Source of the DNA: Escherichia coli
Lineage (GTDB): Bacteria > Pseudomonadota > Gammaproteobacteria > Enterobacterales > Enterobacteriaceae
Assembly (NCBI RefSeq): GCF_003334355.1
Contig: NZ_QOWP01000105.1
Strand: one strand, 5' to 3'
Length of the DNA stretch: 611 nt
Positions 1 through 611 of this stretch are shown here, piece after piece. How positions within the stretch are numbered: the stretch's first letter is position 1; each line of letters opens with the position of its first letter. The notes under the pieces were generated by a model. It ran no database searches and was not told where the DNA came from. It saw only the letters and a program-made list of their open reading frames with translations. The position numbers were made by a program, and so were the translations under genes.

Positions 1-465
1 TTTGTCATGCAGCTCCACCGATTTTGAGAACGACAGCGACTTCCGTCCCAGCCGTGCCAGGTGCTGCCTCAGATTCAGGTTATGCCGCTCAATTCGCTGC
101 GTATATCGCTTGCTGATTACGTGCAGCTTTCCCTTCAGGCGGGATTCATACAGCGGCCAGCCATCCGTCATCCATATCACCACGTCAAAGGGTGACAGCA
201 GGCTCATAAGACGCCCCAGCGTCGCCATAGTGCGTTCACCGAATACGTGCGCAACAACCGTCTTCCGGAGCCTGTCATACGCGTAAAACAGCCAGCGCTG
301 GCGCGATTTAGCCCCGACATAGCCCCACTGTTCGTCCATTTCCGCGCAGACGATGACGTCACTGCCCGGCTGTATGCGCGAGGTTACCGACTGCGGCCTG
401 AGTTTTTTAAGTGACGTAAAATCGTGTTGAGGCCAATGCCCATAATGCGGGCGGTTGCCCGGCAT
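1..465 (-). CDS. insB: InsB, catalytic part of the IS1 transposase, expressed as the InsAB' fusion; 3'-partial (about 12 codons plus stop lie beyond position 1); frame is -1 relative to insA
   Basis: My own translation from the ATG at 465..463 down to position 1 gives 155 sense codons with no stop: [155 protein letters not shown]. This matches IS1 InsB as I recall it. It is absent from the supplied ORF track, presumably because there is no in-window stop codon. Confidence 0.9.
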
Positions 466-611
466 CCAACGCCATTCATGGCCATATCAATGATTTTCTG
501 GTGCGTACCGGGTTGAGAAGCGGTGTAAGTGAACTGCAGTTGCCATGTTTTACGGCAGTGAGAGCAGAGATAGCGCTGATGTCCGGCAGTGCTTTTGCCG
601 TTACGCACCAC
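384..611 (-). CDS. insA: InsA, IS1 transposition repressor / N-terminal DNA-binding part of the transposase; 5'-partial (N-terminal ~16 codons lie beyond position 611); TAA stop at 384..386
   Basis: Minus-strand translation gives [75 protein letters not shown], matching the C-terminal 75 residues of IS1 InsA (91 aa) as I recall it. The 'M' in the ORF track is the internal GTG (Val) codon at 609..611, not a true start. The CSHC zinc-finger half (555..566) and the helix-turn-helix-like segment (roughly 408..494) are present. Confidence 0.92.
402..408 (-). promoter_or_regulatory. Programmed -1 ribosomal frameshift slippery heptamer A-AAA-AAC (A6C), joining insA to insB to make the InsAB' transposase
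   Basis: The minus strand reads ...CAC TTA AAA AAC TCA GGC... in the insA frame (H L K N S G). A -1 slip on A6C gives AAA AAA CTC AGG CCG (K K L R P), which is exactly the insB-frame peptide [10 protein letters not shown]. The insA stop TAA (384..386) lies 15 nt downstream of the heptamer. The IS1 A6C frameshift is established in the literature. Confidence 0.88.

Follow-up and report, generated by a model that had tools for sequence, protein, structure and literature searches.

The window, as we call the whole stretch of 611 nucleotides analysed here, is almost certainly an interior stretch of 611 bp from an IS1A/IS1E-type insertion sequence that lies on the minus strand. Ungapped alignment to the IS1A–F copies of Escherichia coli K-12 and to the IS1 copies of R100 (offset 103) places window positions 1–611 (minus strand) as the reverse complement of IS1 104–714 in an element of 768 bp, and the same internal IS1 segment is found with 611/611 identity in nine E. 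coli chromosomes. Neither inverted repeat lies inside the window; IRL, IRR, the promoter and the start of insA with its first zinc-finger CxxC fall outside it, as do the final 12 insB′ codons. A sequence-only reading made earlier had recognized IS1 in this stretch, and correctly so, as seen from the ungapped identity of 90.8–99.35% to the K-12 and R100 copies together with the Pfam and NCBIfam matches given below; no evidence contradicts the identification. IS1 elements are characterized by a length of 768 bp, by terminal inverted repeats of about 23–30 bp and by target duplications of 9 bp, sometimes of 8 bp. The window is an ordinary and already known sequence, its allele being present in hundreds of public genomes in which it is annotated as IS1, and it is of little importance in itself, since IS1 is among the most studied and most abundant insertion sequences of the Enterobacteriaceae. 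IS1-like sequence was detected by BLAST in 4,970 of 5,426 complete E. coli genomes and in at least 5,000 plasmids of PLSDB. A search for RNA families returned no Rfam match in the window at E ≤ 1. An open reading frame of 94 amino acids with a TTG start lies antisense to insB′ (2–286, plus strand), and nothing marks it as a gene.

All coding in the window is on the minus strand, a point that the sequence-only reading had not stated. The insA frame, which encodes the repressor InsA, extends over 384–611 (minus strand) and comprises codons 17–91 and a TAA stop (386–384). Translation of the reverse complement gives an uninterrupted InsA frame from position 611 to position 387, beginning with VVRNGK and ending with NSGRSR before the stop, and this portion contains the second zinc-finger CxxC (Cys32 at 566–564 and Cys35 at 557–555) and the helix–turn–helix (HTH) domain, as supported by the Pfam families Zn_ribbon_InsA and HTH_Tnp_IS1. 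The insB′ frame, which is −1 relative to insA, extends over 1–465 (minus strand) from the annotated ATG (465–463) and covers codons 1–155 of 167; it is uninterrupted from position 465 to position 1, ends with SKSVELHDK and is supported by Pfam DDE_Tnp_IS1 and NCBIfam NF033558. The insA and insB′ frames thus overlap in the −1 arrangement of IS1, and within the overlap lies the A6C slippery motif TTAAAAAAC at 402–410 (minus strand; IS1 305–313), the role of which as a programmed −1 frameshift site is taken from published work (PMC12428005). Translation of insB′ is confined to the part 3′ of this site (window 404 to 1), which supplies the catalytic C-terminal portion of InsAB′. The insB′ codons 5′ of the site, roughly 20 in number, do not contribute to InsAB′, and InsB is not known as a protein of its own (PMC12903888; PMC12428005). 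From IS1 279 to 443, a stretch that contains the A6C site and extends beyond it on the downstream side, the window is identical to the active IS1A/E copies. That both reading frames are open, without frameshifts or premature stops, had been proposed earlier and was borne out by the absence of stops and of any indel relative to the six K-12 and two R100 copies, with the qualification that both frames are partial and hold 75 of the 91 InsA codons and 155 of the 167 insB′ codons.

The partial transposase was rebuilt by joining both frames at the A6C site, which yields InsAB′ residues 17–220. This sequence matches the Pfam families DDE_Tnp_IS1 (PF03400; E = 2.5e-70) and HTH_Tnp_IS1 (PF12759; E = 3e-28) and, partially, Zn_ribbon_InsA (PF03811; second half, model positions 16–35), and it scores 235 bits against the NCBIfam IS1 transposase equivalog NF033558, for which the cutoff is 100. 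An InsA-type zinc ribbon, an HTH domain and an IS1-type DDE domain are therefore all represented. The putative catalytic DDE triad consists of Asp109 (336–334), Asp166 (165–163) and Glu191 (90–88), all of which are present (span 88–336, minus strand); Asp109 is a candidate picked only by its sequence context. The transposase has 14 acidic residues, with 24 residues between Asp166 and Glu191, and the triad is proposed because this acidic count and this D–E spacing agree with those that Ohta et al. reportedly gave in 2002 in an abstract on the IS1 DDE motif.

All internal components of the IS1 system are intact in the window. In IS1, insA is transcribed from a weak promoter at the left end, and normal translation yields InsA, a zinc-finger and HTH protein that binds the terminal repeats and represses transcription and transposition alike. 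About 1–2% of the ribosomes slip by −1 at AAAAAAC and then read on in the insB′ frame; the frameshift product is InsAB′, a DDE transposase of 232 residues, which moves the element and leaves 9-bp target duplications.

The isoform could not have been called without alignment, as the sequence-only reading had held, and alignment now gives IS1A/IS1E as the nearest. The references were the annotated IS1A–F copies of K-12 MG1655 and both IS1 copies of R100 (NC_002134.1), the latter two being identical to each other. By the ISfinder convention, isoforms share >90% nucleotide identity and >95% amino-acid identity. In ungapped alignments over window 1–611, IS1A and IS1E each show four mismatches (607/611, 99.35%), IS1B and IS1C seven (604/611, 98.85%), both copies of R100 IS1R also seven (604/611, 98.85%), IS1D eight (603/611, 98.69%) and IS1F 56 (555/611, 90.83%). 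Identity is thus at the isoform level throughout, at 99.35% for IS1A/E, 98.7–98.9% for IS1B/C/D/R and 90.8% for IS1F, and the window is neither 100% identical to any of these K-12 and R100 copies nor affected by hidden indels relative to them. Our own mismatch matrix gives full-length differences from IS1A of nine for IS1B/C, nine for IS1D and 73 for IS1F; the published differences are likewise nine for IS1B/C, nine for IS1D and 73 for IS1F, and this agreement validates the reference set (PMC12428005). The closest named isoform among K-12 IS1A–F and R100 IS1R is IS1A/IS1E, and the protein of an identical full-length element (WP_225528490.1) carries the PGAP name ‘IS1-like element IS1A family transposase’. 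Further IS1 isoform names in ISfinder are, among others, IS1G, IS1H, IS1S, IS1SD and IS1X1–X5, one of which might be closer to the window than IS1A. A literature search on IS1X2, IS1A and IS1R found no sequence-level definition of the remaining isoforms.

The window differs from IS1A by four single-base substitutions, C127T, A262C, G278A and T444G, and by no indels. C127T (window 588, minus strand) is silent in insA (Thr24, ACC to ACT). A262C (window 453, minus strand) is synonymous in insA (Thr69, ACA to ACC) and reads as S5R in the untranslated start of insB′; C262 is common to the window, IS1B/C and R100 IS1R. G278A (window 437, minus strand) falls where the two frames overlap and therefore has two readings: GTT to ATT, which is V75I in the HTH domain of InsA and InsAB′, and CGT to CAT, which is R10H in the untranslated part of insB′. 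T444G (window 271, minus strand) changes insB′ Ser65 to Arg, corresponding to S130R of InsAB′, and G444 is common to the window, IS1B/C/D/F and R100 IS1R. Since S5R and R10H are located 5′ of the A6C frameshift site, they are absent from the transposase InsAB′ and are a mere −1-frame readout of changes in insA codons. Relative to the IS1A version, InsA carries only V75I, and InsAB′ carries only V75I and S130R over the compared residues 17–220. The residue differences that had been noted earlier are thus real (InsA Val75 to Ile and insB′ Ser5 to Arg, Arg10 to His and Ser65 to Arg relative to K-12 IS1A), and they are at the isoform level, as had been suggested, with four amino-acid changes arising from three base changes in addition to the silent C127T. 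The residues that the sequence-only reading took as canonical are those of K-12 IS1A.

C127T, A262C and T444G occur together in a variant that is found on many plasmids and chromosomes, and the substitution peculiar to the window relative to this variant is G278A. We followed it with a 35-base probe centred on A278, which gives a megablast match only if A278 is present. Exact matches to this 35-mer were found in 213 E. coli records from 201 of the 5,426 complete genomes, at 473 places in total with as many as 14 in a single genome. The probe is also exact in 129 PLSDB plasmids; most of them are from Escherichia, with a few from Klebsiella, Salmonella, Shigella and Enterobacter. G278A might be put down to faulty sequencing or assembly of a copy that is otherwise standard, being a single base in a class of elements prone to assembly collapse, but this has a negligible probability: A278 recurs in those 213 records, which come from 201 independent complete genomes, as well as in the 129 plasmids, and it stands on three or more haplotype backgrounds. 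We rejected the error because the base recurs across hundreds of independent assemblies. G278A is thus a genuine variant, and the conservative replacement V75I marks a sublineage that is minor but widely distributed.

Exact matches to all 611 bases come from only nine records, all of them E. coli chromosomes. No exact 611-base match was found in PLSDB plasmids, the top ones among the matches listed all being at 99.8% (one mismatch), and no exact match was found in phage records, which hold IS1 copies of up to 99.3% identity, for example in P1. Some of the listed 99.8% plasmid matches carry A278 and differ elsewhere; an example is a pig tet(X4) plasmid (L019; NZ_CP075463.1, 52803–53570), in which A278 (V75I) stands on a C127 background, one base away from the window. 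The 35-mer is also present on many plasmids of pig-associated E. coli (pig, pork and manure records). The T127 and A278 combination of the window was seen on chromosomes only. Many chromosomes of enterotoxigenic E. coli (O6:H16, O25:NM and others) hold at least 40 IS1 pieces, which points to very large expansions, and A278 copies are a minority in them, at 2–5 places. Among 100,044 species-representative genomes, the exact 181-nt pattern with T127, C262 and A278 had no match, and the A278 35-mer had one match, which lies in Ca. Erwinia dacicola, within a divergent relative of IS1. This relative, from an olive-fly symbiont, lies at a contig edge (NZ_MAYS01000129.1, 1–558, minus strand); roughly 10% of bases differ over its gap-free part, and the ungapped alignment is lost after approximately IS1 486. 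Its Ile75 indicates that more distant relatives can accommodate isoleucine at this InsA position.

V75I is located in the HTH domain that is common to the repressor InsA and the transposase InsAB′ and, by the general HTH pattern, presumably occupies the turn preceding the recognition helix. It is conceivable, but very doubtful, that V75I subtly alters how repression and transposition are balanced or how the inverted repeats are bound, in which case the A278 sublineage would be more active rather than a neutral polymorphism. Were this so, a more active IS1 variant would be present in 201 of 5,426 E. coli genomes, at up to 14 places each, and on tet(X4) plasmids.

The nine exact matches are all complete elements of 768 bp with the standard ends GGTGATGCTGCC...GGAGTCATTACC, and they fall into two types. 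Four of the nine (L001, L012, L013 and L014) are of a plain type that equals IS1A plus the four substitutions, one of them with an additional T44C. The other five (L002, L011, L015, L016 and L017) add an IS1F-like patch at IS1 64–103, consisting of nine substitutions that result in V4I, S7R and D15E in InsA, the remainder of the element being IS1A-like; an IS1F-like patch on an IS1A-like element makes these five copies recombinant mosaics. The PGAP label of the mosaic copies is just ‘IS1 family transposase’. The window starts at IS1 104, one base past the last mosaic difference, so that either full-length type is possible for the element from which it derives. That this element is a mosaic IS1 with an IS1F-like 5′ part (IS1 64–103; V4I, S7R and D15E) rather than a plain IS1A-type copy is about an even bet: five of the nine exact matches are mosaic and the window begins immediately beyond the patch, but the other four are plain. 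The two types are identical within the window, and the statements made here on the window itself stand either way.

Perfect 9-bp direct duplications flank four of these full-length elements, at four different sites in four strains, and in three of the four a host gene is split. Three plain elements are inserted in grxA in a strain from Cambodia (L001; duplication CGCGTTCAT), in a DUF1889 gene in a strain from China (L012; TCCCAGTTC) and in adeQ in a strain from Ecuador (L013; CGTATCCGG), and a mosaic element is inserted in the dacD–sbcB spacer in a strain from the USA (L011; AGCACGGTG). These duplications are footprints of recent transposition, and the one flanking L011 indicates that the mosaic type has moved too.

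These insertions bear on the activity of the copy. In K-12 BW25113, IS1A and IS1E together account for over 99.9% of IS1 transposition, whereas IS1B, IS1C and IS1D, which have open frames and only nine base differences, are nearly immobile; L81F in the HTH domain is suspected to be one cause of their low activity (PMC12428005). Open frames alone are therefore a weak predictor of IS1 activity, as K-12 IS1B/C/D show. The interpretation offered by the sequence-only reading holds as regards the IS1 assignment, the open frames, the isoform-level differences and the need for alignment, but open frames do not establish a ‘likely functional’ copy: IS1B/C/D are open and yet barely transpose (PMC12428005), and the ends of the element lie outside the window. 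A firmer argument comes from the 9-bp duplications at four sites, taken together with the preferential cis action of IS1 transposase (PMC12428005): the transposase of this allele is most likely functional. The duplications could instead reflect mobilization in trans by other IS1 copies, the host genomes of the duplication-flanked elements having from 31 to at least 40 IS1 places.

Identity, frames, motifs, variant frequencies and the duplications of identical elements are shown directly, whereas completeness and activity of the copy in the window are inferred: its ends, the start of insA and the last 12 codons lie beyond the window, and the copy could be truncated or damaged there. That location of the element ends and the start codon is one reason to consider that the copy may be a defunct relic, through truncation or mutation beyond the window or a crippling effect of V75I, with frames that are open only because it is young; others are that open-frame IS1 copies with few substitutions can be nearly inactive (PMC12428005) and that an A278-bearing copy in E. 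coli P276M (L018) is a pseudogene. Such a relic is nevertheless unlikely. Fresh 9-bp duplications flank identical elements at four independent sites, several genomes hold the allele in multiple copies, V75I is conservative and its Ile75 also occurs in the divergent IS1 relative, and the suspect L81F of IS1B/C/D is absent from the window. The P276M copy (NZ_CP044293.1, 11857–12548) is annotated as a pseudogene and has normal ends; its interior, at approximately IS1 387–620, is not collinear with IS1A and may have been rearranged or inverted internally. A278 is found at 10 places in strain P276M.

Known IS1 copies resemble the IS1A/IS1E-type segment described here to different degrees. IS1F of K-12 belongs to the same family and has the same organization, but its insB′ frame contains a stop (W163*) and its annotation is that of a pseudogene. 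R100 IS1R and IS1B/C share C262 and G444 (insB′ Arg5 and Arg65) with the window and, unlike it, carry A298C, T301C, C304T (InsA L81F), C393A and T396C; in addition, R100 IS1R has C127 where the window has T127, and IS1B/C have T704A (L217Q), which the window lacks. The widespread variant that equals IS1A plus C127T, A262C and T444G, represented by L003 (NZ_CP029181.1, 134661–135428), matches 610 of the 611 bases, the window differing from it only by G278A. The ‘consensus’ active IS1, namely IS1A and IS1E of K-12 MG1655 (NC_000913.3, 19796–20563 and 3583428–3584195), has the same frames and the same A6C site as the window, and Leu81 of InsA is found in the window and in active IS1A/E alike.
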